Virus record (IMG/VR): IMGVR_UViG_2767802354_000003
Location: 4,685 to 68,684 of that record
From: a virus
Lineage: Duplodnaviria > Caudoviricetes
Direction: 5' to 3' (one strand)
DNA length: 64,000 bases
Each line of letters begins with the position of its first letter. The first letter of the stretch is position 1. The position numbers were made by a program, and so were the translations under genes. Below are positions 23,070-44,595 of this stretch, piece after piece. The notes below the pieces were generated by a model. The model saw only the letters and a list, made by a program, of their open reading frames with translations, was not told the DNA's origin and did no database searches.

Positions 23070-23611
23070 TGCACGCCCTCCTGCTGCCTGCGTGTGCTCA
23101 GGCCCAAGGCTTCTTTGGCATCCTTCAACGCGCGATAGCTCACGGTCTTGTCGCCAGCCTCCGAGCGGGCCAGGATCTTCCGCGCCCAGTCCTTGCCATC
23201 ACCATGGGCCACGATGCGCACCTCCAGGCGTTGAAACTTGGGCGCGGGCAGCGCCAGCAGGCCGGCCTCTTCCGCATAGGTCTTGCGGGGCGTAGCCGCT
23301 TTGCACAGGGCCTCAAACTGCGGCAGGCTGGGCGGGAACTCGGGGTGGTGGTCGGCAATGCGATCGGCTGCAGCCTCAATCACCTCCGGCGCGTATTTGC
23401 GCAGCGAAGCCCCCCAGACCTTGAGCGCAGCCAGCATGCCGATGTCCTGCCCGTCATTGTCCAAAGCTCCAGAGCCGAACTTGCTCAGGAAAGCGGTACC
23501 GTAGGAGCCCTGCATCAGCAGGAACAGCTTTGCCACGCCGGCACTCACGGCCTGAGACTCTCCGCGACGGGGCGAAGCCGCCGCATGGGCCAGTTGTCCA
23601 ATGGATTTCAT
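23066..23611 (-). CDS. Replication protein P-like (helicase loader position)
   Basis: Follows initiator; FPPSLPQFEALC motif. Confidence 0.65.
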   Translation of the reverse strand: MKSIGQLAHAAASPRRGESQAVSAGVAKLFLLMQGSYGTAFLSKFGSGALDNDGQDIGMLAALKVWGASLRKYAPEVIEAAADRIADHHPEFPPSLPQFEALCKAATPRKTYAEEAGLLALPAPKFQRLEVRIVAHGDGKDWARKILARSEAGDKTVSYRALKDAKEALGLSTRRQQEGVH

Positions 23612-24462
23612 TGCAGACCTCCGAGAATGGCAGCCATGGCGCCAGCGTGCTTGCCACCTGCTGCGGCTGCAGGTGCCATGGATGGACGGCGGGCCGCGGG
23701 CATTTCGGTGGATCGACGGATCCAGTTGCGCCAGGTCGCCCCCCAGTCGGCCTTGCGCCCGTCCTTGCCAGCCTTGGCGCGCCAGTGATCGGCAAACATC
23801 GCGGCCTGGCGGCGCACCTCTTCCTCGGTCAGGCCGGCATGTTCGGCAATGGCCCAGTCACCCCAGCTCTTGGGCAGCTTCCAGTCTTCGGGCAGGCGTG
23901 TTCCTGTCGCTGTCGCAGTCTTGCCCCTTCCCTTGCTGGCTTCTGGCTGAGCCGAAGGCGAAGTGTCACGGTCAGCATCACCTACAGCCTTTGAATAGTT
24001 AACTGTCTCTTCTTTATCTGTATCTATATCTGTATCTGTACGCGTGACATCCGTACCCGTCACGCGTGACTCGCCAGTGACCTCATCGTGACCACCCTCT
24101 TCTCCCTCTGAAACAGCGTCTTTTTTGCGCTGGCGCTGGCGGCGTTTACGCTCTGCTGCGGTGTTGTCGGTGTCGCTGCGCATCTGCAAGGTGGCCCACT
24201 TGGAAGGCTGCAGGGTGGCCTGTTCGATCAGCCCAACTTCTGCCAGGCGGCGGGCCACCTCTTCCAGGCTGCGCACATCCAGACCCAGCTTCACGGCGAC
24301 CTTGCGCATCAGCAGCGCAGGTGCATCGCCCTTGTCCAGCAGCCCCTCGCCCTTGAGGCACAGCAAGGCCACAAAGTGCCAGCGATCCTCAAAGGCCAGC
24401 AGCTTCAGCTTGTCGTCGTCGACCATCCGCGTATAGGTACGGAACCATGGGAGCTTGCTCAT
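23608..24462 (-). CDS. Replication initiator O-like
   Basis: LPWFRTY N-terminus, AERKRRQRQR, C-terminal FADHW...DWGATWRNWIRR. Confidence 0.85.
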   Translation of the reverse strand: MSKLPWFRTYTRMVDDDKLKLLAFEDRWHFVALLCLKGEGLLDKGDAPALLMRKVAVKLGLDVRSLEEVARRLAEVGLIEQATLQPSKWATLQMRSDTDNTAAERKRRQRQRKKDAVSEGEEGGHDEVTGESRVTGTDVTRTDTDIDTDKEETVNYSKAVGDADRDTSPSAQPEASKGRGKTATATGTRLPEDWKLPKSWGDWAIAEHAGLTEEEVRRQAAMFADHWRAKAGKDGRKADWGATWRNWIRRSTEMPAARRPSMAPAAAAGGKHAGAMAAILGGLQ

Positions 24463-24935
24463 CGTCCAAACCTCGCGTTATCTGCGGCGTGCTCTGCATC
24501 CAGGGATTGCTGAACAGCAAGCAACGCAGCCACGGCCTCGGCGATTTCACGCTGCACCACGCGCTTGTCGTTGTCGCTGACGTTGTTGTCTGCCTTCGCC
24601 ATCGTGGTGGCCATCAGAACGTCGGCGCATTCACGCACCGCGATGGCTGCAGACTTGGAAAGGCATTTTTCAGCGCCTGGCTGCGCTTCGGGCAGCGCCA
24701 GCATGCCGGCGTTGAATGAGAAGACCGTGCCCAAGGCATGCGCTTCTGCGCTACCAGCCTCACGGCACATAGACGCAATCTCATCAGCGTCAGCGAGACC
24801 CATCTTGTGGCTTGGGGACACGCCGCTCAGCTCCTTGCGCAGAACTTCGTCGGATTTGTTCAGGCGGGCTGCAAGAGCAGCGCGGCCGCCTGGGTAGTTG
24901 GCGACCATGCGTCGCAGTGCATCAAGAGCATTCAT
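24459..24935 (-). CDS. Phage regulatory CII-like protein
   Basis: YPGGRAALAARLNKS..VLRKEL HTH; position after cro. Confidence 0.75.
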   Translation of the reverse strand: MNALDALRRMVANYPGGRAALAARLNKSDEVLRKELSGVSPSHKMGLADADEIASMCREAGSAEAHALGTVFSFNAGMLALPEAQPGAEKCLSKSAAIAVRECADVLMATTMAKADNNVSDNDKRVVQREIAEAVAALLAVQQSLDAEHAADNARFGR

Positions 24936-25682: not shown

Positions 25683-25780
25683 TGCCCACCTCCTTGGTAC
25701 AGGTGGATGGCCGCACCGCAGCCCCAAAGCCAGCGATGGCTATGGCGATGGACAAATTAATGATGTGATTCATGGAGAGC

Positions 25781-26259: not shown

Positions 26260-26511
26260 TCACTCCACCTCCTTGGTTGAGGTGGATGGCTGCGCCAGCT
26301 CAGGCCAAATCTGGGTGTACTGGTCGGGGAACAGATCCCGCCTAGTCACAGTAGTGAGCTTTTCAAGGCTTGCAGCGCAAGCAGCAGGGATCGGGCGCCG
26401 TCCGCTGATCCACTGGGATATCTCGGAAGGGGATTTGCCTAGGGCTCGCGCCAGAGCAGTCGGGCCACCTGCCTCGGTGCTGGCTCGCTTTGCGAATGCT
26501 GCATGTTTCAT
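26260..26511 (-). CDS. cro: Cro-like HTH repressor
   Basis: GGPTALARALGKSPSEISQWISGRRPIP HTH, divergent from cI. Confidence 0.88.
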   Translation of the reverse strand: MKHAAFAKRASTEAGGPTALARALGKSPSEISQWISGRRPIPAACAASLEKLTTVTRRDLFPDQYTQIWPELAQPSTSTKEVE

Positions 26512-26520
26512 TCATAAAAT

Positions 26521-26581
26521 TTAGCATAGCTAATCATAAAAATCAAGCCACGCTAAATTCATTAATTATTAGCATCGCTAA
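26521..26581. promoter_or_regulatory. OR operators and pR
   Basis: TTAGCATAGCTAA (26521-26533), CAAGCCACGCTAA (26544-26556), TTAGCATCGCTAA (26569-26581); - strand TTGATT-N17-TAAATT just upstream of cro. Confidence 0.75.
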
Positions 26582-26582
26582 C

Positions 26583-27341
26583 ATGAAAGAATGGACTACT
26601 GAGGAAGAGGCTGCAAACCTGCGTCGCCTTCTTACCGGCGTTAAGAACAAGGCTCAGTTCGCCAAGGACAATGGAGTTCCAGGCGGTGCGTCCATGCTTT
26701 CCCAACACCAAAGTGGGCATCGCCCCATCAGCTTGGATGCGGCCAAAGCGTATGCAAAAGGGCTGGGTATCGGAATCGGAGAGATTGCACCTCGCTTTGC
26801 AAAGCTGGTGTCTGACGTCTCGGAGCTTGCTCAGCCAGCGCCTTACCCAAGGGGTCACGAGATAGACATGTCAGCGTACAGTGCTGTTCCGATGTATCAC
26901 GCACCTGACGCTGTAATTGTTCCTCTGCTCTCTAACTGCGGCAGCATGGGCCCCGGTTCTGAGTTGCTGGAGTCAGATGTCATTGTGGGTGACTTGGCCC
27001 TATCCCCACACTGGATCAATCAGCAGATCAGGCCCCAGAACCCGCAAGAGCTGCGCTTCATACACGCATATGGCGACAGCATGGCCCCAACATTCACAGA
27101 TGGCGATGTCCTGCTCGTTGACACAGGGCTTAGTGCACGTGACCCCAGTTCACGCGAAGGCGTCTACGTTTTGCGGGCGAATGATCGAACTTTCATCAAG
27201 CGTGTCACCCCCACCTTTGACGGCAAGCTGCAGGTGACCAGCGACAACCCCAGCGCCAAGACTGTACAAACACTGAATGGCGATCATCAAGTGGATGTGG
27301 TTGGTCGGGTGGTGTGGGCCTGGAATGGGAAAAGGCTGTAA
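26583..27341 (+). CDS. cI: CI-like repressor (HTH + S24 peptidase)
   Basis: N-terminal HTH; GDSMAPT..DGDVLLVD, FIKRV and VVGRVV S24 motifs. Confidence 0.93.
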   Translation: MKEWTTEEEAANLRRLLTGVKNKAQFAKDNGVPGGASMLSQHQSGHRPISLDAAKAYAKGLGIGIGEIAPRFAKLVSDVSELAQPAPYPRGHEIDMSAYSAVPMYHAPDAVIVPLLSNCGSMGPGSELLESDVIVGDLALSPHWINQQIRPQNPQELRFIHAYGDSMAPTFTDGDVLLVDTGLSARDPSSREGVYVLRANDRTFIKRVTPTFDGKLQVTSDNPSAKTVQTLNGDHQVDVVGRVVWAWNGKRL

Positions 27342-28857: not shown

Positions 28858-28920
28858 GTAGCAGCGCTTCATTTTATATTTAGCAAAGCTATTGCTTATT
28901 TAGTTTAGCAAAGCTACATT
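28858..28920 (+). promoter_or_regulatory. OL operators and pL promoter
   Basis: TTAGCAAAGCTA at 28880 and 28905 plus a degenerate copy at 28858; TTGCTT(28892)-N17-TACATT(28915). Confidence 0.75.
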
Positions 28921-29224
28921 ACATCCATCGCAGCAAAGCGATGGGTGCCAAGTGATCGAGCCAGCACCTCAGGTCCTTAAAAAGCCAGAGATTCAATGCA
29001 CGTCGTGAGACACGCTGCGCCCCGATGACTTACCGGAACGCGCCGCGACTCTGCCGCCCCGAAGCGGTGGATGGTGCTAACCGGCGCAGATAGTGATCTG
29101 CATAAAGCTGCCAGAGCGAAGCGCAAGCCAGTGACAGTGGGAGATATGCGCCGCCACCCGGAGCGCATCCGGGGTTCAAACGAAAGCCTTGCTAGCAGCG
29201 CGTTCGTTTGAGTACAGTGAATCC

Positions 29225-29404: not shown

Positions 29405-29532
29405 CTGCGGCTTCAGCTGCGACAACATGGTGGGGCGTCTATTTTTTCAAGAGCACCGTTTAAGGTCATTTAAAAGCGTACTGTGGGACAAGGCAGTCAA
29501 TCTTGACCAGCCACCTTAGACCGGAGGTCTAT

Positions 29533-29694
29533 TTGTCAGGTAACCCCATTCCCATCTCTACCCCATCTTTTTGGAACACCTTGAAGCTGATGTTTTTTAT
29601 CACTGATGGGCTACCAGCTCCACAGCAACAAGGCAAGCCTCGTGTCCCTAAAGAAAAGAATGAGGAAGAGCAGCAGCAGCAACGCAAACAGTAG
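29533..29694 (+). CDS. Microprotein A1 (53 aa, TTG start)
   Basis: Start 1 nt after the SD hairpin; ungapped similarity to A2. Confidence 0.6.
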   Translation: MSGNPIPISTPSFWNTLKLMFFITDGLPAPQQQGKPRVPKEKNEEEQQQQRKQ

Positions 29695-29749
29695 CGAAAG
29701 AGAGCTACTTTTTAACTCAGGGTTGCGCTACCGCCCTAGCAAGCACACC

Positions 29750-29770
29750 AGCCACCTCCGGGTGGCTTTT
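29750..29770 (+). terminator. GCCACC/GGTGGC-family intrinsic terminator (also 30080, 30954, 31531, 32426)
   Basis: Same 6-7 bp stem with variable loop and T tract, five times in 2.7 kb. Confidence 0.8.
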
Positions 29771-29855
29771 GCTTGCGCCGTTTAAGGTCATTTAAAAGCG
29801 TAATGTGGACGCATGCGAGTCACTTTTGCTTCGCAGCTTTAGACCGGAGGTCTAT

Positions 29856-30035
29856 ATGTTTCCACTCCTTGTGTACCAAAGATATGTCGCGTTTTGGCAT
29901 GACATGTGGTCGATCATCCTTGAGCCCATCTCTGAGCTCCCGCCAAGCCCTTCAAGCTTCGATCAAGAGCCTTCAGCAAAGCCAGAAACGCCACCATCCA
30001 CGCTCGGCCCAGATGCAGCCAACGACAAGCCCTGA
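29856..30035 (+). CDS. Microprotein B1 (59 aa)
   Basis: ATG after SD hairpin; 25/59 identical to B2. Confidence 0.7.
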   Translation: MFPLLVYQRYVAFWHDMWSIILEPISELPPSPSSFDQEPSAKPETPPSTLGPDAANDKP

Positions 30036-30242
30036 TTGACACGTTCACGCCCCAGACTAAGCAGAAAGCCATGATCCTCAGCCACCTTTTCAGGTGGCTT
30101 TTCTTTGAGGAAACTGCTGCGGTTTAAGGCCTATTCGAGCATTGCTGACATGGACTTTGAGACCGCCGTTTAAGGTCATTAAAAAGAGTACCGTGGACTC
30201 ATGTGGCCTATCTTGGACCGCTGCCATAGACCGGAGGTCTAT

Positions 30243-30461
30243 ATGTCTTTCATCGACAAAACTATCTTCAACATCCGCTCCCGGCTTCCCGCCGTGAAAC
30301 AGGAAGTCGATTCCCGGAGCGTGGCGGATGACGACCGAATCTTTCACACGCCATTTCAAACGGATGCACAGCTGCAGGAGGAATCACCTGAGCAGATGCT
30401 GCGCAAAAAAACGAACCGCCTTTTGCTGCAAGCGGTCCTCAACAAAATCTCTGCCGCTTGA
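30243..30461 (+). CDS. Microprotein C (72 aa)
   Basis: ATG after SD hairpin. Confidence 0.65.
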   Translation: MSFIDKTIFNIRSRLPAVKQEVDSRSVADDDRIFHTPFQTDAQLQEESPEQMLRKKTNRLLLQAVLNKISAA

Positions 30462-30485
30462 GCAAGCTTCTGACCGGAGGTCTAT

Positions 30486-30665
30486 ATGTTTTCACTACTT
30501 GGCTACAAACGTCAGTCCGAGTTCTGGCGTGATATGTGGGTGATGCTCCTCGAGCCGATTTCAAAGATTCAACCCATCGAACCCAGTCTCGATTCACCAC
30601 TCGCACCGACGCCAAAAGCCCCACAGCCCAGCTCCGAAACACCTGCTGTCAACGACAAGGCGTGA
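30486..30665 (+). CDS. Microprotein B2 (59 aa; not in ORF track)
   Basis: MFSLLGYKRQSEFWRDMWVMLLEPIS...NDKA; paralog of B1. Confidence 0.7.
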   Translation: MFSLLGYKRQSEFWRDMWVMLLEPISKIQPIEPSLDSPLAPTPKAPQPSSETPAVNDKA

Positions 30666-30724
30666 CAGCACCATACGGAGACGCAGCGAGCCCGTAGCTC
30701 GCGCGTGTCAGTCTGGAGGTCTAT

Positions 30725-30907
30725 ATGTCAGTAAGCCGCATCCCATCTTCATTCCTGAGGGTTTGGAGAACAGTCAGACGAGTCTTCGCCAGAGGCGAGC
30801 CACTCCCCAGTCCACCCAACATCGAACAGTGCGGACCTCCTGAAAAAGACAAGAGGAGGCAAGAGGAGAGGCAATCGCGCATGCGCCATAGCTATCGATA
30901 CTGGTAG
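30725..30907 (+). CDS. Microprotein A2 (60 aa)
   Basis: GGAGGTCTATATG start context; paralog of A1. Confidence 0.6.
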   Translation: MSVSRIPSSFLRVWRTVRRVFARGEPLPSPPNIEQCGPPEKDKRRQEERQSRMRHSYRYW

Positions 30908-31258
30908 CAAGAGTGTTCGACAGCTCCCACGATTACGTGGCTTCATTTTCAACAGCCACCTTCTAAGGTGGCTTTTTTGTGCCCGGAGATCTTGAGATGT
31001 GAGCATTCAGCCAACATGTGCCATACATGCGCCCTCTCCCGCAGGGCTATAGCGGGGCCATCAAGAAAGAGCGCGGCAATGAAAAACTGCAACGTGGGTG
31101 GAGTTGGGTAATCCGCTCTTTTTCTTGATGGTGCCGGGGGTCGGCTCCCCGGCTCTTACAAAGCAAGCCTGAAAGGGCCTGGCTGGAAAACTGCAAGAGG
31201 GTAATCGCACTGGCCACAGGTGCCCATCATGACCACCCCGGGAAAGTAGCGGGGGCTA

Positions 31259-31364
31259 TCTGGCGTGACTGCTCGAGCAAGTACGGCAACTCAGGAATGG
31301 GCCTGGGTTGGCGGCAGTCACGAGCACGGCGCATCCGCGTCGTGGCGACAGTGGTCACGCCAGA
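31259..31364 (+). ncRNA. Putative structured RNA, family X copy 1
   Basis: 15-bp closing stem with G-U pairs plus two internal hairpins; homologous to copies 2 and 3; strand inferred from G-U pairs and operon direction. Confidence 0.6.
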
Positions 31365-31570
31365 GGGTTTAACAACTTTTCTTAACGTAAATAAGCTTCA
31401 GATGTGGTTCGTCGCGGCGAGCGAATGCGACAAAAGCACTCATTGCGCAGCATCAGACGATAGGCTGTGAATTTATTTCAGTAACATCCGCCTTAGGCCC
31501 AGCTATTAGGACGTAGGTGGAGCCTCTTACGCCACCCACAAGGTGGCTTTTTTTGTCCTGAATTCAGGGC

Positions 31571-31682
31571 CATCCGGCGTTACTGCTTGAACAGGCATGC
31601 CCCCAAGAATTTGCCTGGGTCGCCGTCTATTGGGAGCGCGGCGCGGCTTCCGCGTCGTGAGCGACAGCGGTCACGCCAGATG
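31571..31682 (+). ncRNA. Putative structured RNA, family X copy 2
   Basis: CATCCGGCGTTACTGCT/AGCGGTCACGCCAGATG closing stem; 10-bp inner hairpin. Confidence 0.55.
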
Positions 31683-31763
31683 ACGTAGAGCCCGTTTATG
31701 AGCCCACACACATCTTGATTCCGTCACTCTCTTTGGGCAAAATTTGCGTCACGTACCTGTTTT

Positions 31764-31876
31764 GCCGGGCCTGGGGTCACAGACTCCTTTCACTTCCGCA
31801 ACTTGCCCAGGCATGACCAAATAGGTCGCCGGCTTTTTATTCGTGCCCGCAGCAACTGCTTGCGGGCTTTTCTTTT
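31764..31876 (+). ncRNA. Putative sRNA, family Z copy 1
   Basis: GCCGG/CCGGC, GCCTGGG/CCCAGGC, GACC/GGTC three-stem junction plus terminator. Confidence 0.6.
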
Positions 31877-32050
31877 GCCGCCGGCAGTTCAAGCTAAAAA
31901 ACAGGATACACATAGTGGAAAACAGGCCCCCTAGATGCGCACCACCACAGCCGCATGAGTAGACATGGGGCTATCCAGTTTGGTGTAAGACGAGCTCCTA
32001 TTGATCACCCAAAAAGCATCGTGCAGAATTCGACGCCATCTACCTGTTAC

Positions 32051-32163
32051 GCCGGGCCTGGGGTTAACTCCTCCCTCCCTTTCTGACCTCTTCCCCAGGC
32101 ATGGCCCGAAAGGGTCACCGGCTCTTTACTCAAGCCCGCAGCTACCGCTCGCGGGCTTTTTTT
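32051..32163 (+). ncRNA. Putative sRNA, family Z copy 2 (CU-rich anti-SD loop)
   Basis: Same junction; loop CTCCTCCCTCCCTTTCTGACCTCTT; GAAA tetraloop; terminator. Confidence 0.65.
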
Positions 32164-32179
32164 GCCCACAGGAGACCAC

Positions 32180-32236
32180 ATGCACTCAAGTCCAATCACC
32201 ACCCGCACGACAAAACTGCTACTTGCCAAGCAATAG
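32180..32236 (+). pseudogene. Truncated paralog of the 45-aa TM peptide (TGG to TAG)
   Basis: MHSSPITTRTTKLLLAKQ* then ALTGLGL, aligning to MHSTQTTAYNTKLLLAAQWALTGLGL. Confidence 0.6.
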
Positions 32237-32467
32237 GCGCTCACAGGCTTAGGCCTCGCATGTACCTTCCCCCGCAGGGCTATAGCTAGACCACATCAAA
32301 TAGTAAATATGAATTAATTCTTGAACACCAATAGAAAATGTTGACAACATCAGATGTTAGTGAAAGTATTCACCCTAAGTAAGTCTTTGAATGAGCGCTG
32401 CTCGTGTGTGAGTGAAGCCTCTTTAAGCCACCCTCCGCAGGGTGGCTTTTTTTGCACCAAAGTCAGT

Positions 32468-32580
32468 GCCATCCGGTGTGACCACTCGAGCAGGTACGGC
32501 AGTTCAGGAATAGGCCTGGGCGGGCGGCAATTAGGAACGCGGCACTTTGCGTCGTGGCGACAGTGGTCACACCAGATGGC
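32468..32580 (+). ncRNA. Putative structured RNA, family X copy 3
   Basis: 18/19-bp closing stem with compensatory changes relative to copy 1. Confidence 0.6.
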
Positions 32581-32589
32581 AAGTCAGGT

Positions 32590-32850
32590 TTACTTCTTCC
32601 CACCACCGACAAGGTAGACGTTGCCCTCGGCCACGTTATTGAGAAGCTCGCGATACGCATTCACCAAGTGATCGCGGCCAAGCCTGAACTCGGGATCCGT
32701 TCTATCAGGTCCGTCCTGATGCTTAGCATCCAGCTGTGCAGCGCGCAGCTCTCTCGCCGCTTGATGGGCAGTCTCGCGCGGTAGCGCCTTGACGACTGCC
32801 GTCAAGATCATCGACAGCGCAGCAAATGCGCCAGATTCCTCCTGGGTCAT
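32590..32850 (-). CDS. Hypothetical protein (86 aa), antisense insert
   Basis: AGACTGGAGGT RBS context; helical protein. Confidence 0.6.
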   Translation of the reverse strand: MTQEESGAFAALSMILTAVVKALPRETAHQAARELRAAQLDAKHQDGPDRTDPEFRLGRDHLVNAYRELLNNVAEGNVYLVGGGKK

Positions 32851-32887
32851 GAGGCACCTCCAGTCTGATGACCCATTCTAGTTTCCA

Positions 32888-32997
32888 GCCGGGCCTGGGG
32901 TTTATCTCCTCCCTCCCTCTCTGACCCATTCCCCAGGCAGACCCGAAAGGTCACCGGCTCTTTATTCAAGCCCGCAGCAAACGCTCGCGGGCTTTTT
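32888..32997 (+). ncRNA. Putative sRNA, family Z copy 3
   Basis: Same junction; loop ATCTCCTCCCTCCCTCTCTGACC; terminator. Confidence 0.65.
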
Positions 32998-33019
32998 CGT
33001 TACCCACACAGGAGATTCC

Positions 33020-33157
33020 ATGCATTCGACTCAAACCACCGCCTACAACACAAAGCTGCTGCTCGCGGCGCAATGGGCTCTTACCGGCCTCGGCCTGTTC
33101 TGCCTGGTCGGCGCAGCCGTGGTGATCGCACTCACGCCAGAACCCTGGCCCCTCTGA
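33020..33157 (+). CDS. Small single-TM peptide (45 aa; not in ORF track)
   Basis: CAGGAG RBS; WALTGLGLFCLVGAAVVIAL hydrophobic segment. Confidence 0.65.
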   Translation: MHSTQTTAYNTKLLLAAQWALTGLGLFCLVGAAVVIALTPEPWPL

Positions 33158-33190
33158 GCATTCAACCTTGAAAACTGACAGGAGAGACTC

Positions 33191-33388
33191 ATGCTGAAGA
33201 CGATTGTCGACTCCCTGCTGGTCATCGTTGGCGCAATGCTTCTCGCAGCCTGGCTGTCCGCGCCTGATGCCCAAGCCGATGAACCCAAAACCTTCACCCA
33301 AAGCCTGCGCGATGAGTTCGCCTGCCCGGGCATGCATGCCGAGTGGCTGGACGAGAAGACCGTGCAATGCCTGAAAGAGCAACCGTAG
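33191..33388 (+). CDS. Small membrane-anchored/exported protein (CPGM motif)
   Basis: N-terminal hydrophobic helix; CPGM..W.....V.C.KE shared with 33614-33883. Confidence 0.7.
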   Translation: MLKTIVDSLLVIVGAMLLAAWLSAPDAQADEPKTFTQSLRDEFACPGMHAEWLDEKTVQCLKEQP

Positions 33389-33613
33389 ATTGGCCATGAC
33401 ATGACCTTTTTGCAGGAAGTCTTTTCGCTCTTCTTGCACATAAGGATAGAGAATAGGCATTGCAAAATTCATTGCAATAGTTTGTCTTCAGACAGAGCTT
33501 TTGCCTTTCGCTGCGCAGACGTCCATTGGAGGTCATCAACATGCGAGCTCTAAGGCGCCAAAGGGTGCAATAGCGGCCGTTGCGTTCGCATCCATCAACA
33601 TAGACTGAAGCGT

Positions 33614-33883
33614 ATGGCAAAGCCACCAATCCAGCTTGAGTACCTACCCAAGAGGCGAAGCAGCAGGAACCACCTCCTCTGGAGGGCAGGATTCTTCTTG
33701 AGCGCCTCGGCGGTTCTGCTGACTTGCCTGGTCATGGAAGGCTGTAAGCCCGAATCGGGAAAGAAGTTTGAGGAAACAACTGCTGCATTCAAAAATTCAG
33801 CGCTTAGCGCCTGGCATTGCCCAGGAATGACAGCCATTTGGGTCAGCGAAAATATTGTGAAGTGCGTCAAAGAAGAGCGTTGA
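33614..33883 (+). CDS. Paralogous small membrane protein (CPGM motif)
   Basis: Hydrophobic segment; HCPGMTAIWVSENIVKCVKE. Confidence 0.65.
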   Translation: MAKPPIQLEYLPKRRSSRNHLLWRAGFFLSASAVLLTCLVMEGCKPESGKKFEETTAAFKNSALSAWHCPGMTAIWVSENIVKCVKEER

Positions 33884-33952
33884 GCTCGAAAATTTAAAAA
33901 TGCAAAAAGCCCACACCTTTACAGATGTGGGCTTTTTTACGCCAAGTAAAAA

Positions 33953-34204
33953 TTACTTGCGTGTGTTGGCTAGAGATACAGAGATAACTCGACCACCCAA
34001 TGACTGATCATTCAGGGAGTCGATCGCTGTCTTTGCTTGGGCAGCAGTGCCCATTTCAACAAAGCCGAAGCCGCGCGATTGACCTGTATTGCGATCCATT
34101 ATGACTTCAGAGGAAATAACATCCCCACAGCTTGAAAAATGTGATTTCAGTGTTTCGCGATCGATGCCATAGCCAAGATTGGAGACGTAGAGATTGCTTT
34201 GCAT
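33953..34204 (-). CDS. RRM (RNP-1) RNA-binding protein, copy 1
   Basis: RNP2 LYVSNL and RNP1 RGFGFVEM. Confidence 0.95.
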   Translation of the reverse strand: MQSNLYVSNLGYGIDRETLKSHFSSCGDVISSEVIMDRNTGQSRGFGFVEMGTAAQAKTAIDSLNDQSLGGRVISVSLANTRK

Positions 34205-34337
34205 ACAGTACCTTCTAAATGAATTTCGCTACTTATTTTTCAGAGCGAAAGATGATTCCCAAGAGAACCACGAGAGTGCTTTGGTGAAGATTAGTCAGTA
34301 GCCAAAGCTTCTACTGAGGGTTGAAAAATGATCCAGC

Positions 34338-34556
34338 TCAATTCAGCTGGTGGCCAAGCACCATGCTCCGGCCTTCAGCCAAAGCATATTTAGAGGCAAG
34401 CGACTCATCAGAAAAATTCGGAATGAACCGAAAAATTCGGTCATAAGTTCCGCGACGAATAGAGACAGCAGCAGTGAATTGACCACTTGCGTCAGTCTGG
34501 GTGAGAGGTGTGACCACGTAGCGGCCAATCTGCTCTGTAGTGTTTTTGTGCAGCAT
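34338..34556 (-). CDS. Conserved small hypothetical protein, copy 1
   Basis: 55/72 identical to 38869-39087. Confidence 0.8.
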   Translation of the reverse strand: MLHKNTTEQIGRYVVTPLTQTDASGQFTAAVSIRRGTYDRIFRFIPNFSDESLASKYALAEGRSMVLGHQLN

Positions 34557-34947
34557 GAAAGCGAACGATCACACGCACGATTGCGCAGACCGTCAAATGA
34601 GATAGGGAAGGCCCGTGCTAAGTGCAGGGGGCAACGCAGATCCGCGAGGATGTTCAGGATCTGGTGGAGTTCGCCTAGAGGGGTGTGACCACCGCGTGCT
34701 TTGCTAGAAGAGCGGCTACCTGCGGCCAAGGGGCGGCATTGGTGTCAGACAGGCGCTGTTGGGGCGAACGGCCTTAACAGCGAGTGAAACCAGTATAGGT
34801 GAACTGAAAGACCTTTGGTTGGAAATCTTCCGTTACCCCGACCTGACGCCCCTCACATCAAAGACTTCAAAAATAAATTGATAGACCACTAAGGATTAAC
34901 CATGTACTGTGGGCCTAGCGTTCGCATATTTATAGAGAGCCTCACCA

Positions 34948-35130
34948 ATGACCAAAACTAAAAAATCAACAGTTCACCATGTCGTGGAGGCCAAGCGATG
35001 GGAGCTCAGTCGCGAAAAAGAGCGCATCACCTACCCTCCTGAACATGCCGGCCCCGTGCAAATGGAATGGCGCAAGCGAGAAAACTACTCCGCCACCGAC
35101 CTCGACTACCGAGGCCGCAGCAAGATTTAG
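34948..35130 (+). CDS. Small basic hypothetical protein, copy 1 (60 aa)
   Basis: 49/60 identical to 39491-39673. Confidence 0.75.
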   Translation: MTKTKKSTVHHVVEAKRWELSREKERITYPPEHAGPVQMEWRKRENYSATDLDYRGRSKI

Positions 35131-35359
35131 AGAGCCTCCACAGAATTGCCTTTGCCCGCCATTGAGCGGGCTTTTTTATGAGTATCACCAGCATGACAAA
35201 CACCACCACTGACAAGCGTTGCGGAAGCTGCGGCGCCCCTCTTCCTAAAGACTTCAAAGAAGAGCAGGGTCAACCACTTCCTTGCGGCCACTAACAGCCA
35301 CAACTTCCCCAACATCAGAGCCCGCCAATCAGCGGGCTTTTTCTATTTCTGGAGTCTCA

Positions 35360-36550
35360 ATGTTCAAGAGCATGACCATTTACCGCCTTGCCAAGAGCTG
35401 GCAAAGCGATCTGCAGGCGCTGAAAAATTCCCTGCAAAAGACGGTGTTTGAAGAGTGCGGCGCGACCCAAGAGCGCTCCGTGGGCTGGGTTCCGCCGCGC
35501 GGCGAGCAGCACGGCCCGCTGGTCGAGTCCGTGGCCGGCCAGTGGGTCATGCGCTTCATGACCGAGGCCAAGGTGCTGCCGGCCAGCGTGCTCAACCGTA
35601 AGGTCAACGAAAAGGCCGAGCACATCGAAAAGACCGAAGGCCGCAAGCCCGGCAAGAAGGAAAAGCGCGAGCTCAAGGACGAGGCCAAGCTGGACCTGTT
35701 ACCCATGGCCTTCACCAAGCAGGGCAGCATGTGGGTCTGGATCGATCCGCAGGCGCGCACCCTGGTGCTCGATACCAGCGCCCAGGGCCGCGCCGACGAG
35801 ATGGTGACGCTGCTGGTCGAAGGCCTGCCCGGCTTTGCCCTGGCCCTGCTGGATACCCAGACCAGCCCACAGGCCGCCATGGCGCACTGGCTGATGACAC
35901 AAGAGCCGCCCGCAGGCTTCACTGCCGACCGCGAGACAGAGCTGAAAGCCGCCGACGAGTCCAAGGCCGTGGTGCGCTACGCACGCCACCCGCTGGATAT
36001 TGATGAAGTCCGCCAGCACATCGAGCACGGCAAGCTACCCACCAAACTGGCCATGACCTGGGACGACCGAGTGAGCTTTGTACTGACCGAAGGCCTGCAG
36101 ATCAAGAACATCACGCTGCTGGATGCTGTCATGGATGGCAACAGCAAGGACGATGGCGGCTTCGATACCGATGTGGCCATTGCCACCGGCGAGCTGTCGC
36201 GCCTGATTCCCGACCTGATCGAAGCATTGGGCGGCGAAGGCCGCACCCGCCTGGGCGACCTGCCCGCCTCGCTTCAGAACGCGCCTGCTGCGAAAACTCT
36301 GCCAGCAAGCACTGCCAGGACCGCGCCCGCCCCGCACTGCGAAGCTGCTGGCGACGGTCGGGACCCGCTCTATGCCGAGGCCGTTGAACTGGTGCGCAAG
36401 GACCAGAAGCCAAGCGTCTCCTATGTGCAGCGCAAGCTGTTGATTGGCTACAACCGGGCCGCCGCCTTGCTGGAGCGCATGCAGGCCGAGGGACTGGTGT
36501 CGCGCATGGATGGCAGCGGCAAGCGCACGCTTTTGACGCCGCCCGCCTAG
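35360..36550 (+). CDS. rdgC: RdgC recombination-associated protein with C-terminal FtsK-gamma-like winged helix
   Basis: SVGWVPPRG, KVLPASV, GKLPTKLAMTW RdgC motifs; C-terminal DPLYAEAV...SVSYVQRKLLIGYNRAAALLERMQAEGLVS. Confidence 0.9.
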   Translation: MFKSMTIYRLAKSWQSDLQALKNSLQKTVFEECGATQERSVGWVPPRGEQHGPLVESVAGQWVMRFMTEAKVLPASVLNRKVNEKAEHIEKTEGRKPGKKEKRELKDEAKLDLLPMAFTKQGSMWVWIDPQARTLVLDTSAQGRADEMVTLLVEGLPGFALALLDTQTSPQAAMAHWLMTQEPPAGFTADRETELKAADESKAVVRYARHPLDIDEVRQHIEHGKLPTKLAMTWDDRVSFVLTEGLQIKNITLLDAVMDGNSKDDGGFDTDVAIATGELSRLIPDLIEALGGEGRTRLGDLPASLQNAPAAKTLPASTARTAPAPHCEAAGDGRDPLYAEAVELVRKDQKPSVSYVQRKLLIGYNRAAALLERMQAEGLVSRMDGSGKRTLLTPPA

Positions 36551-38265: not shown

Positions 38266-38517
38266 TTACTTGCGTGGACGGGCCAGGGCCACTCCCACAG
38301 CGCGACCGCCCAGCGGTTGGTCGTTCAGCGACTGGATAGCTTTCTGGGCCTGCTCAGGAGTGGCCATTTCAACAAAGCCGAAGCCGCGTGAGCGGCCGGT
38401 TTCGCGGTCGGAAATGACGTCTGCGGAGATCACTTCACCGCAACCGCTGAAATGTGCGCGCAGGGCTTCGCCGTCGATGGAATAGCCGAGATTGGTGACA
38501 TAGAGATTGTTTTGCAT
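38266..38517 (-). CDS. RRM (RNP-1) RNA-binding protein, copy 2
   Basis: LYVTNL and RGFGFVEM; 56/83 identical to copy 1. Confidence 0.95.
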   Translation of the reverse strand: MQNNLYVTNLGYSIDGEALRAHFSGCGEVISADVISDRETGRSRGFGFVEMATPEQAQKAIQSLNDQPLGGRAVGVALARPRK

Positions 38518-43424: not shown

Positions 43425-44450
43425 CTATGCAATGCCGTCCAGCCGCTCCGCAATTTGGTCGGCGGTCGGGTTGTAATAAGTCATCGCCCGCTTTGGGTCT
43501 GTCCAACCAAAGACCTTGCACAGGTCGAGCACGTGCAGCTTTTGCGCCATCCGCGTTGCGGCGGTGTGGCGAGAATCGTGAAAAGTAAAACCGTCCAGCC
43601 CGGCACGCTGGCGGTTTCTCCTAAAGATCGCATCCAGCACAGATGCATCTATATTGAACACGAATTCATCGTCGTTCCCTCGCAAGGATTCCAAGTTGCG
43701 CAATGCAGCTCTGGTCAAGGGCACATTGCGGCCCATGCCTGTTTTTGTCTGTCCTTTGTGCAGGACGCAAAAATTCTTGCGTACATCCTTCCAACGCAAC
43801 TTAGTCACCTCCCCTGCTCTCATGCCGGTTTGCAGAGCAGCAATGAAGCATCGAGCAGCAATCTGCTTTGCCTTCGTGATGCCACCTGAGCGCGACCACT
43901 CCATCTCCCTAAGCATCTTGCGAATCTCAACCCCTTCAATAATCCTCTCTCGGCTATGGGGTGTAGAGGGCCTGCTCACATCCGTCATTGGATTGCGAGT
44001 AATCCAGTGCCATTCCTTGCGTGCGTACTCCAGAACATTGTTCACCAGCGCCATTTCGCGCAGCACGGTTGAGTCCTTTACGGACTTCCTTCGTGCGTTC
44101 TTCCACTGGATAAGGTCTTGCTCGTCCAGTTCGGCAATGGTTCGCTCACCTGGCCATTTAGGGTGTTTCGTAGTGATTGCCTCAATCCGAATCTGCTCCC
44201 AGCGCCAGCCACGCTTATCAGGCGAGACCTCTTCCTTGTACTTGTTCATGGCGTCATTGAGGGTCTTCGACTCCCCGTGCAACTTGGCGCCAGCCTTGCC
44301 GCCTTTGGCTGCAGCCCTCAGCTCTATAAGCCTGATGCGTCCCCATTCCTGCGCCTCTCGCTGGGTATTGAACGTGGAACTATCTCGCGCTCCGTCAAAC
44401 TCAACCTGTTGACGCCATTTTCCAGATACAGTTTTAGTGGGTTTTCTCAT
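43425..44450 (-). CDS. int: Phage tyrosine integrase
   Basis: TGMRAGE (R), FHDSRH (HxxR) and MTYY catalytic motifs. Confidence 0.95.
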   Translation of the reverse strand: MRKPTKTVSGKWRQQVEFDGARDSSTFNTQREAQEWGRIRLIELRAAAKGGKAGAKLHGESKTLNDAMNKYKEEVSPDKRGWRWEQIRIEAITTKHPKWPGERTIAELDEQDLIQWKNARRKSVKDSTVLREMALVNNVLEYARKEWHWITRNPMTDVSRPSTPHSRERIIEGVEIRKMLREMEWSRSGGITKAKQIAARCFIAALQTGMRAGEVTKLRWKDVRKNFCVLHKGQTKTGMGRNVPLTRAALRNLESLRGNDDEFVFNIDASVLDAIFRRNRQRAGLDGFTFHDSRHTAATRMAQKLHVLDLCKVFGWTDPKRAMTYYNPTADQIAERLDGIA

Positions 44451-44541
44451 TGCTGCGGGGTGCAAAAATTGGGCGAAATTGGGCGCTGAGTGTGTGCAAA
44501 AGGTGTTTTTTGCTGCAACCCTGCGCCTACCCCGGATAGCA

Positions 44542-44554
44542 TAAGTCTTTGATT
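44542..44554 (-). promoter_or_regulatory. IHF consensus site in att arm
   Basis: AATCAA-AGAC-TTA matches WATCAANNNNTTR. Confidence 0.6.
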
Positions 44555-44595
44555 TATTTAAAAAAGTGCAGCTATTGCACAATCTTGAAACCCTG

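Follow-up and report, generated by a model that had tools for sequence, protein, structure and literature searches.

What is a sequence of about 110 nt doing three times over between the early genes of a prophage, and does it work there as RNA or as DNA? The question arises from a window of 64,000 nt (bases 4685-68684 of a 68.7-kb IMG/VR provirus, IMGVR_UViG_2767802354_000003; positions are those of the window), in which the element, here termed X, lies in three copies on the plus strand. We find that X is a new family of structured elements of a known general kind, so far restricted to the prophages of Comamonas, and that it probably acts as RNA by some mechanism; a role in the processing of early transcripts is put forward more tentatively. 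The copies in the window, together with a fourth site that seems to have decayed, are as follows.

31256-31367, plus strand: copy X1 (covariance model 133 bits; minimum free energy -60.7 kcal/mol, z -5.4), with its closing helix P1 at 31256-31273 / 31350-31367 and inner hairpins P2 at 31284-31313 and P3 at 31325-31344 (plus strand)
31570-31683, plus strand: copy X2 (99 bits; -53.3 kcal/mol, z -2.3)
31950-31975, plus strand: candidate decayed X site, a degenerate P0 hairpin and GCTATCCAG, then the spacer found after X in other phages
32467-32581, plus strand: copy X3 (132 bits; -58.0 kcal/mol, z -5.4), its arms 32467-32486 / 32562-32581 (plus strand) making up inverted repeat I3 (20 nt, 95% complementary)

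The folding z-scores were measured against dinucleotide shuffles, and X1 is a row of the family alignment (A5) described below. The original prediction had placed three copies of about 110 nt here; all three were borne out, with ends lying slightly further out than first drawn, and the stem variants quoted for them (GGCGTGAC/GTCACGCC against GGTGTGAC/GTCACACC, and TGC against CAC opposite GTG) are present as described. X2 is the most divergent of the three, with a shorter P2 and a P3 extended to ~10 bp, while a convergent open reading frame (ORF) of 86 aa has its stop codon 9 nt away from the 3' end of X3. The covariance model, run with its filters off, recognised only these three full copies in the 64 kb; the matches ranking after them, at 26 bits or less, are palindromic reverse reads of X. 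The site at 31950-31975 appears, by inference from its letters, to be an X that has kept only its first ~9 nt. A candidate fourth copy at 33118-33141, in the 33020-33160 region, was rejected: its likeness to the 3' arm covers just 24 nt at 75%, it lies inside a 45-aa ORF and it is without a match to the model, and the synonymous sites of this ORF vary among phages, with no RNA constraint seen.

Searched for as an exact 20-nt pattern, the 3' arm matched 27 stretches of viral contigs, the greater part of them proviruses in isolate genomes; once two positions were allowed to vary, it matched genomes of Comamonas testosteroni, C. thiooxydans and Comamonas sp., among chance matches. A covariance model built from 30 copies places X in 12 of 41 Comamonas species genomes at 1-7 copies each, and sequenced strains of C. 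testosteroni and C. thiooxydans carry 1-7 copies; C. testosteroni ATCC 11996, for example, has two (locus L100). Under strict filters, the model did not find X in any of 150 genomes sampled from other genera of the bacterial family, nor did X have a match in the cultured-phage and plasmid records searched. Rfam 15 gave no window match at gathering scores, and at E up to 5 over 29500-35300 the one match that overlaps an X copy is a 15.6-bit chance match to a snoRNA; a literature search for prophage or small RNAs of Comamonas yielded no relevant paper. Copies range from 107 to 135 nt, and since these length differences are not multiples of three, X is considered non-coding. A small ORF running across X (e.g., 31297-31470) was likewise rejected because the length differences between copies break its frame and the AUG in the P2 loop is not conserved.

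The fold was examined in 53 distinct copies, which were aligned with MAFFT without fitting to a structure, the helices being named by hand; the alignment is dominated by a few subfamilies. X consists of the closing helix P1, of 18-20 bp, and the two inner hairpins P2 and P3, with a conserved P2 loop, AAUNNG, and a 2-bp extension across a 3x3 internal loop; a further small hairpin, P0, is optional. Standard pairs occupy 89.3% of the 2058 pair cells, a figure that falls to 29-39% when the 3' partners are slid by 1-3 columns. The covariation score of 0.160 compares with 0.125 ± 0.004 in shuffles and was reached by none of 500; pairs changed on both sides number 17, as against 11.2 (equalled in 3/500), and further pair types 56, as against 48.2 (0/500).

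This signal is clearest in P2, where double-sided changes affect 9 of the 11 pairs and one pair occurs in all four Watson-Crick types (AU 39, UA 5, GC 2, CG 1). In the divergent subtypes represented by loci L005 and L134 the P2 stem is rewritten and the AAUNNG loop kept. P3 retains its pairing through a change of length from 5 to ~10 bp, and is absent from six 107-nt variants. The inner hairpins are thus preserved despite divergence, as had been predicted, by compensatory changes and by insertions or deletions that preserve pairing. Covariation, which had been expected of a larger alignment, is found in P2 but not in P1, which is conserved in sequence. The compensatory change claimed for the closing stem fares accordingly: its variants exist as quoted, but the pair in question is C-G in 25 copies, U-A in 8, U-G in 3 and a C·A mismatch in 17, so that covariation there is weak, and the one true transversion swap in P1 (G-C to C-G) occurs in L144. 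These comparisons support the view of X as a conserved, structured, non-coding family whose P2 and P3 are held by compensatory changes.

The inner hairpins favour the plus strand. In P2 the alignment holds 59 G·U cells as against 25 A·C cells, and in P3 60 as against 18, i.e., 119 to 43 for the two hairpins together. A stronger indication of the strand than these counts is the orientation of X. Among 51 copies with their surroundings, 38 are followed within 400 nt, on the same strand, by a small RNA (sRNA)-like unit with its own terminator, termed Y, which never lies upstream or on the opposite strand; furthermore, intrinsic terminators stand upstream of X on the same strand in 27 copies and on the opposite strand in three. 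Since the orientation holds across 35 combinations of flanks, a single inherited arrangement is an unlikely cause. The simplest reading is that X functions in a single-stranded, co-directionally transcribed form, i.e., as RNA, though single-stranded DNA is formally possible.

The wider surroundings of X have a lambdoid layout, as judged by PHROG matches.

23608-24462, minus strand: replication gene (PHROG)
24459-24935, minus strand: CII-like gene (PHROG)
26260-26511, minus strand: Cro-like gene, recognised by eye from its translation
26490-27341, plus strand: CI-like repressor (PHROG)
~28880-28925, plus strand: two copies of the operator-like direct repeat TTTAGCAAAGCTA, then the hairpin CCATCGC-AGCAAA-GCGATGG (28870-28950)
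35282-36550, plus strand: RdgC-like (RdgC-type) recombination-/exonuclease-associated protein (PHROG)
43425-44582, minus strand: integrase

The letters of 28870-28950 are likely those of a promoter and operator region of the PL (leftward promoter) type. Since X is intergenic between the CI-like and RdgC-like genes of this lambdoid layout, it belongs to a PL-type early operon; in locus L005, too, X has small genes around it, and an exonuclease and a methylase lie downstream. The covariance model found no copy on the PR (rightward promoter) side of the window, the minus strand. Between 27.9 and 35.3 kb there is no real-looking ORF of more than 120 aa, and this stretch holds at least ten plus-strand terminator-like hairpins; over both strands, 24 terminator-like sites were counted where 9.5 were expected.

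Within this region, the local order is regular. The stop codon of a same-strand gene, or the terminator of an sRNA-like unit, is followed by a 15-nt linker or by P0, then by X, a spacer, Y with its terminator, a ribosome-binding site (RBS) and a gene; in five loci the part from the spacer to Y is replaced by the 3' end of the convergent 86-aa ORF. The parts recognised around X in the window are listed here.

31236-31254, plus strand: P0 of X1, with a CCCCG / CGGGG stem (RNAfold)
31556-31569, plus strand: P0 of X2, with a CCTGA / TCAGG stem, 15 nt after the T-run of the upstream terminator
31747-31872, plus strand: Y1, sRNA-like, downstream of X2, with a CU-rich loop and a terminator (repeat families D1, D6 and D12)
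32034-32161, plus strand: Y2, downstream of the decayed X site, with repeat families and a terminator
32888-32997, plus strand: Y3, then the ORF of a 45-aa membrane peptide at 33020-33157

P0 is a small GC-rich hairpin that ends 0-2 nt before P1. It was seen in ~30 of 42 distinct contexts with at least ten unrelated stem sequences, and its statistical support is modest (mean z -0.96, RNAfold on the 30 nt before P1). In three loci Y begins 10 nt after X, and the two must therefore be co-transcribed there. A promoter-like TTGATY-N17-CARAAT was recognised by eye in two spacers (31715-31743 and 32001-32029); none common to the contexts was seen by eye inside or just upstream of X.

The flanks themselves are highly variable: 23 types were distinguished upstream and 17 downstream, and copies of X with both flanks unrelated may be up to 96% identical, which is taken as a sign of selection. 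By these comparisons, X is conserved while its surroundings are shuffled, with exchange points at or inside X. Indeed, five loci (L150, L151, L152, L154 and L155; positions ~1462-1500 of each, reverse-strand read) contain half-X relics that keep only the last ~26 nt, the 3' arm GCGACAGCGGTCACGCCAGGTGGC, and that begin 2 nt beyond the stop codon that ends an unrelated gene; this gene has displaced the rest of X and the upstream sRNA unit.

How might X act in such a setting? Our tentative proposal is that, in early transcripts made by read-through, it may serve as a module for RNase III-type processing and insulation. Given that no promoter is shared by the 23 kinds of upstream flank and that a terminator precedes at least 27 of the 51 copies, X would be transcribed mainly when polymerase reads through from the upstream unit. 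In these read-through or polycistronic early transcripts, it would fold into a long duplex; P1, at 18-20 bp with 89% of its cells paired over the 53 copies, corresponds to the near-perfect duplex of ~20 bp that RNase III calls for. The duplex would then serve as the processing and insulating signal, the putative cut parting the upstream gene or sRNA from the downstream cassette of Y sRNA and gene, and presumably leaving defined, hairpin-protected ends. Contigs from RNA libraries, drawn from four runs in at least three studies and 88-95% identical to the window, extend over X copies and span both the terminator-X and the X-spacer-Y junctions. They weakly support transcription of X, being assembled contigs that cover nearly whole genomes, may include DNA and carry no information on strand, ends or level. 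Processing by RNase P, which the original prediction had offered beside RNase III, found no support: there is no tRNA-like match, ARAGORN reports no tRNA or tmRNA gene in the window, and the CCA lies inside the stem.

In addition to the nature of these contigs, several observations weigh against the RNase III proposal. For a plain RNase III site, a three-way junction would be superfluous, and so would the conservation of junction and loop nucleotides. As the half-X relics keep only the last ~26 nt, X must be dispensable at that slot. In a naive G-test with average product correction, 2 helix pairs stood among the top 30 of 5807 column pairs (0.2 expected), their small number being due to the phylogenetic shallowness of the alignment. 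The minus strand folds equally well, with z-scores of -3.8, -2.6 and -6.7 for the reverse strands of X1, X2 and X3 (the last against -5.4 on the plus strand); X is largely palindromic, and folding energy therefore picks no strand. Finally, the variation of the conserved P1 consists mostly of one-sided transitions, and its 78 G·U cells are matched by 75 C·A cells, which are G·U on the other strand. The tolerance of G-U pairs that had been taken to point to RNA thus fails as an argument for the closing stem, where both kinds of cell are equally common, and it survives for P2 and P3, which together with the fixed orientation favour the plus strand. The P1 pattern fits a DNA inverted repeat as well as it fits an RNA helix.

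We judge it unlikely that X works at the DNA level. If it did, X would be a hotspot of recombination or a conserved boundary between modules and would drive mosaic exchange among related prophages, or else it would be an element resembling a miniature inverted-repeat transposable element (MITE) or a single-stranded-DNA element, with its terminal inverted repeats of 18-20 nt recognised by a recombinase or transposase. The lack of strand bias in the P1 arms would be natural for such an element, as would the position of X at the mosaic junctions described above, the breakpoints inside X and the existence of internal-deletion variants. Double-stranded DNA, however, has no need of compensatory covariation in P2 or of the one-strand G·U preference of P2 and P3. 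Moreover, all copies lie in prophage early regions and in one orientation to Y and the terminators, whereas MITEs scatter both ways. No flanking direct repeat that could be a target-site duplication is common to the X copies, and no transposase or integron-type integrase was seen beside them. The core sites of integron attC elements (RYYYAAC ... GTTRRRY) are not present at the ends of X, which read GCCATCYGG ... CCAGATGGC.

If X is instead a stable RNA that is cut from early transcripts and acts in trans, it might bind or titrate a protein through its junction and AAUNNG loop; the decoying of the RNA recognition motif (RRM) proteins of the phage had been suggested, and a host RNA-binding protein or nuclease could also be the partner. 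Two such genes are present in the window, encoding proteins of 83 aa that are 67% identical to each other.

33953-34204, minus strand: phage RRM gene (RRM_1, E = 1e-20)
38266-38517, minus strand: phage RRM gene (RRM_1)

Conservation at the junction and loop nucleotides goes far beyond the needs of a plain duplex, and the loop persists where the P2 stem has been rewritten, an example being the L005 type. All 41 Comamonas genomes searched also contain host RRM genes, which are 44-51% identical and distinct from the phage type; the latter (58% identity or more) occurs in 9 of 12 X-positive genomes as against 2 of 29 X-negative ones, and lies 1-5 kb from X in six Comamonas genomes. This association, which at first sight favours a decoy, can be explained by shared prophage ancestry. 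The phage-type gene is missing from three of the 12 X-positive genomes, and it occurs in only 5 of 15 X-bearing provirus records; among the 8 records with a completeness of 90% or more, 3 have it and five have none. The decoy idea is weakened accordingly, and X is independent of the RRM proteins. Furthermore, X has neither a promoter nor a terminator of its own, and in the RNA-library contigs no accumulation above the summed depth of its flanks was seen. Taken together, we regard a trans-acting, protein-binding X as doubtful.

The abundance of terminators raises the further, distinctly improbable, option that X is a cis-acting signal for processive antitermination, comparable to the put RNA of phage HK022, which brings about terminator read-through in cis with no protein factor, or to the protein-loading part of a nut-like site, and lets early transcription cross terminators. 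Such a signal would find ample use among the at least ten plus-strand terminator-like hairpins at ~28.9-35.3 kb, ahead of the recombination genes, and a terminator stands just before an RBS within ~80-200 nt after nearly every X. The two hairpins of X recall those of put, a nut-like sequence composed of a boxA and a hairpin is present at 31152-31190, and GCTCTTTA occurs in Y2 and Y3. The position and copy pattern of X nevertheless tell against such a role: X first appears ~2.3 kb beyond the operator-like repeats at 28880-28925, after at least four terminators, and has no copy in the PR operon on the minus strand. Because X often directly follows a terminator, a polymerase halted there would never make it.

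There is a slight chance that X represents a catalytic or polymerase-directed RNA of a new class, either a self-cleaving ribozyme that severs early transcripts at every cassette boundary or an RNA, unrelated to put, that reprograms RNA polymerase, with the conserved junction and the AAUNNG loop as its active fold. A self-cleaving ribozyme of a new class is barely credible: known small ribozymes cluster in prophage intergenic regions, and X is repeated in just such a region and has a three-way junction with conserved nucleotides, but it matches no known ribozyme model, bears no cleavage-site mark and can lose P3 wholly.

Base-pairing partners of X were also sought. In a survey of P2 antisense matches (18 copies, ±3 kb) the best complementary matches were 8-11 nt, with a mean of 8.9; a sense-strand control, which can pick up the P2 of other X copies, gave 9.3, and a reversed-sequence control gave a mean of 5.5 with matches below 8 nt counted as 0. 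The P2 loop has 10-nt perfect complements at 30739-30759 (for X1) and 30127-30145 (for X3), but no target site conserved across phages emerged from this survey, and matches in the sense control were as long. Pairing of X with the Y loop or the Y 5' leader was rejected, the short complementarities GGAAUGGG/CCCAUUCC and AGCAGGUA/UACCUGUU not covarying across phages, while RNAduplex of the whole of X against downstream RNA produced meaningless full-length duplexes.

The units that surround X have features of their own. Y folds into an outer stem GCCGG/CCGGC and an inner stem GCCUGGGG/CCCCAGGC, the latter enclosing a CU-rich loop that is similar to an anti-Shine-Dalgarno sequence. It also has a GAAA hairpin and the boxA-like, single-stranded GCUCUUUA(UU)CAA, and its intrinsic terminator stands ~15 nt before an RBS. 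Its sole relation in Rfam is an 18-bit match (E = 4.4) of the terminator part to the Betaproteobacteria toxic sRNA (RF02278). In many phages, Y and its terminator are followed by the conserved 45-aa peptide with one hydrophobic helix (MHS..KLLLAAQWALTGFGLFCLVGAAVVIALTPEAWPL; 33020-33157, plus strand), which has relatives in L116, L128, L113, L026, L137, L129, L130 and L135 and no Pfam match. It resembles a small membrane effector or a type I toxin, and at 32180-32236, after Y2, there is a truncated copy of 18 aa. Upstream of X stand two further sRNA-like units, C (31369-31555, plus strand) and B (32341-32455, plus strand), which recur before X in many phages. Their promoter-like hexamers, read by eye, are TTAACA-17-TAAGCT and TTGACA-17-AAGTAT, and their terminators end alike (GCCTCTT..GCCACCC...GGGTGGCTTTTTTT), with an X copy 15 nt after each.

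A further element, Z, occupies the slot after 'module D' that X occupies in seven other loci.

31037-31136, plus strand: Z element, containing inverted repeat I1 (24 nt, 83% complementary), with a weak match to the X model (13.4 bits)

Z is composed of a P0-like hairpin and a long hairpin, and has X-like ends (GCCATC...GATGGTGCC) with an unrelated interior; its version in L012 is ~37 nt longer. The nut-like sequence at 31152-31190 (plus strand) comprises GGCTCTTAC, close to the lambda boxA CGCTCTTA, then 4-7 nt and a hairpin that in other phages reads CCAGGCC-UGCAA-GGCCUGG, with covarying variants, and is degenerate in the window. For comparison with the boxA of host rrn operons, GCTCTTTAACAA was looked for in the draft genome G001 and was not found there. 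Further upstream, 29500-30910 (plus strand) holds ORFs of 59-72 aa behind an RBS-holding hairpin GACCGGAGGTCTATATG in 3-4 repeats ~240 nt apart; at least two of these ORFs are paralogous, the upstream motif CCGTTTAAGGTCATTTAAAAGCGTA recurs, and no Pfam match was found. An RBS hairpin, GCCATCCACCT(N)ACCAAGGAGGTGG, is repeated at ~26265-26295 and 25685-25715 on the minus strand, just before start codons downstream of the Cro-like gene.

Whatever its mechanism, X marks the points of module exchange in these prophages, with identical elements standing between unrelated flanks, and together with the Y, B, C and Z units it makes this prophage early region one of the richest in non-coding elements that we know to have been described. 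Should X be an RNA signal, it would constitute a new structured-RNA family, absent from Rfam, among the few phage elements that organise early transcripts, and would show how a temperate phage separates or processes cassettes of small RNAs and small toxin-like genes. The family also offers a ready test system in its strains of 1-7 copies, its natural P3-less variants and its half-deleted copies.

Several known systems invite comparison. The put sites of HK022 are ~70 nt long and consist of two stem-loops with no closing helix, one site lying just downstream of PL and the other ~270 nt downstream of the PR start (PMC9378689). X resembles them in its two hairpins and in its place ahead of terminators in a phage early operon; in contrast to put, it is 107-135 nt long with a closing helix of 18-20 bp, and its three copies lie 2.3-3.6 kb beyond the PL-like operators, with none on the PR (minus-strand) side. 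Another parallel is provided by the ERIC, REP and MITE repeats (enterobacterial repetitive intergenic consensus, repetitive extragenic palindromic and MITE elements), which are ~110-130 nt long, have conserved inverted ends, lie in intergenic regions or 3' untranslated regions and, once transcribed, probably influence the stability of mRNA. X shares with ERIC and MITE elements the terminal inverted repeats, with arms of 18-20 nt, and the short and long variants produced by internal insertions and deletions, but differs in its confinement to the prophage early regions of one genus (all 53 copies), its fixed orientation and its compensatory interior.

The C4-type immunity RNAs (c4 of P1 and P7, CI of P4) are small, structured RNAs that are released from longer transcripts and have inner hairpins as well as 5' and 3' ends that pair; RNase P makes their 5' end, and their loops are complementary to target sites in the same phage. 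X is like them in its paired ends, its inner hairpins and its location in a prophage immunity and early region, and unlike them (Rfam RF01695) in being larger and present in several copies; the C4 model had no match at E up to 5 over 29500-35300. Closest to our proposal are the RNase III signals at which the early transcripts of T7 are cut (R0.3-R1.3, between early genes) and the sib site of lambda, which comes into being as RNA only once polymerase has run past a terminator. These sites have no sequence relation to X, for which RNase III cleavage is putative; where they are simple interrupted hairpins, X has two inner hairpins that meet in a three-way junction with conserved nucleotides. The likeness lies in homologous copies placed in one orientation between early-operon genes, in a duplex of about two helical turns and, as with sib, in an element that would be made only upon terminator read-through. 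We chose the RNase III precedents because the duplex, the conserved nucleotides, the orientation, the place next to terminators, the multiple copies and the dispensability of X at a single slot need to be explained jointly.

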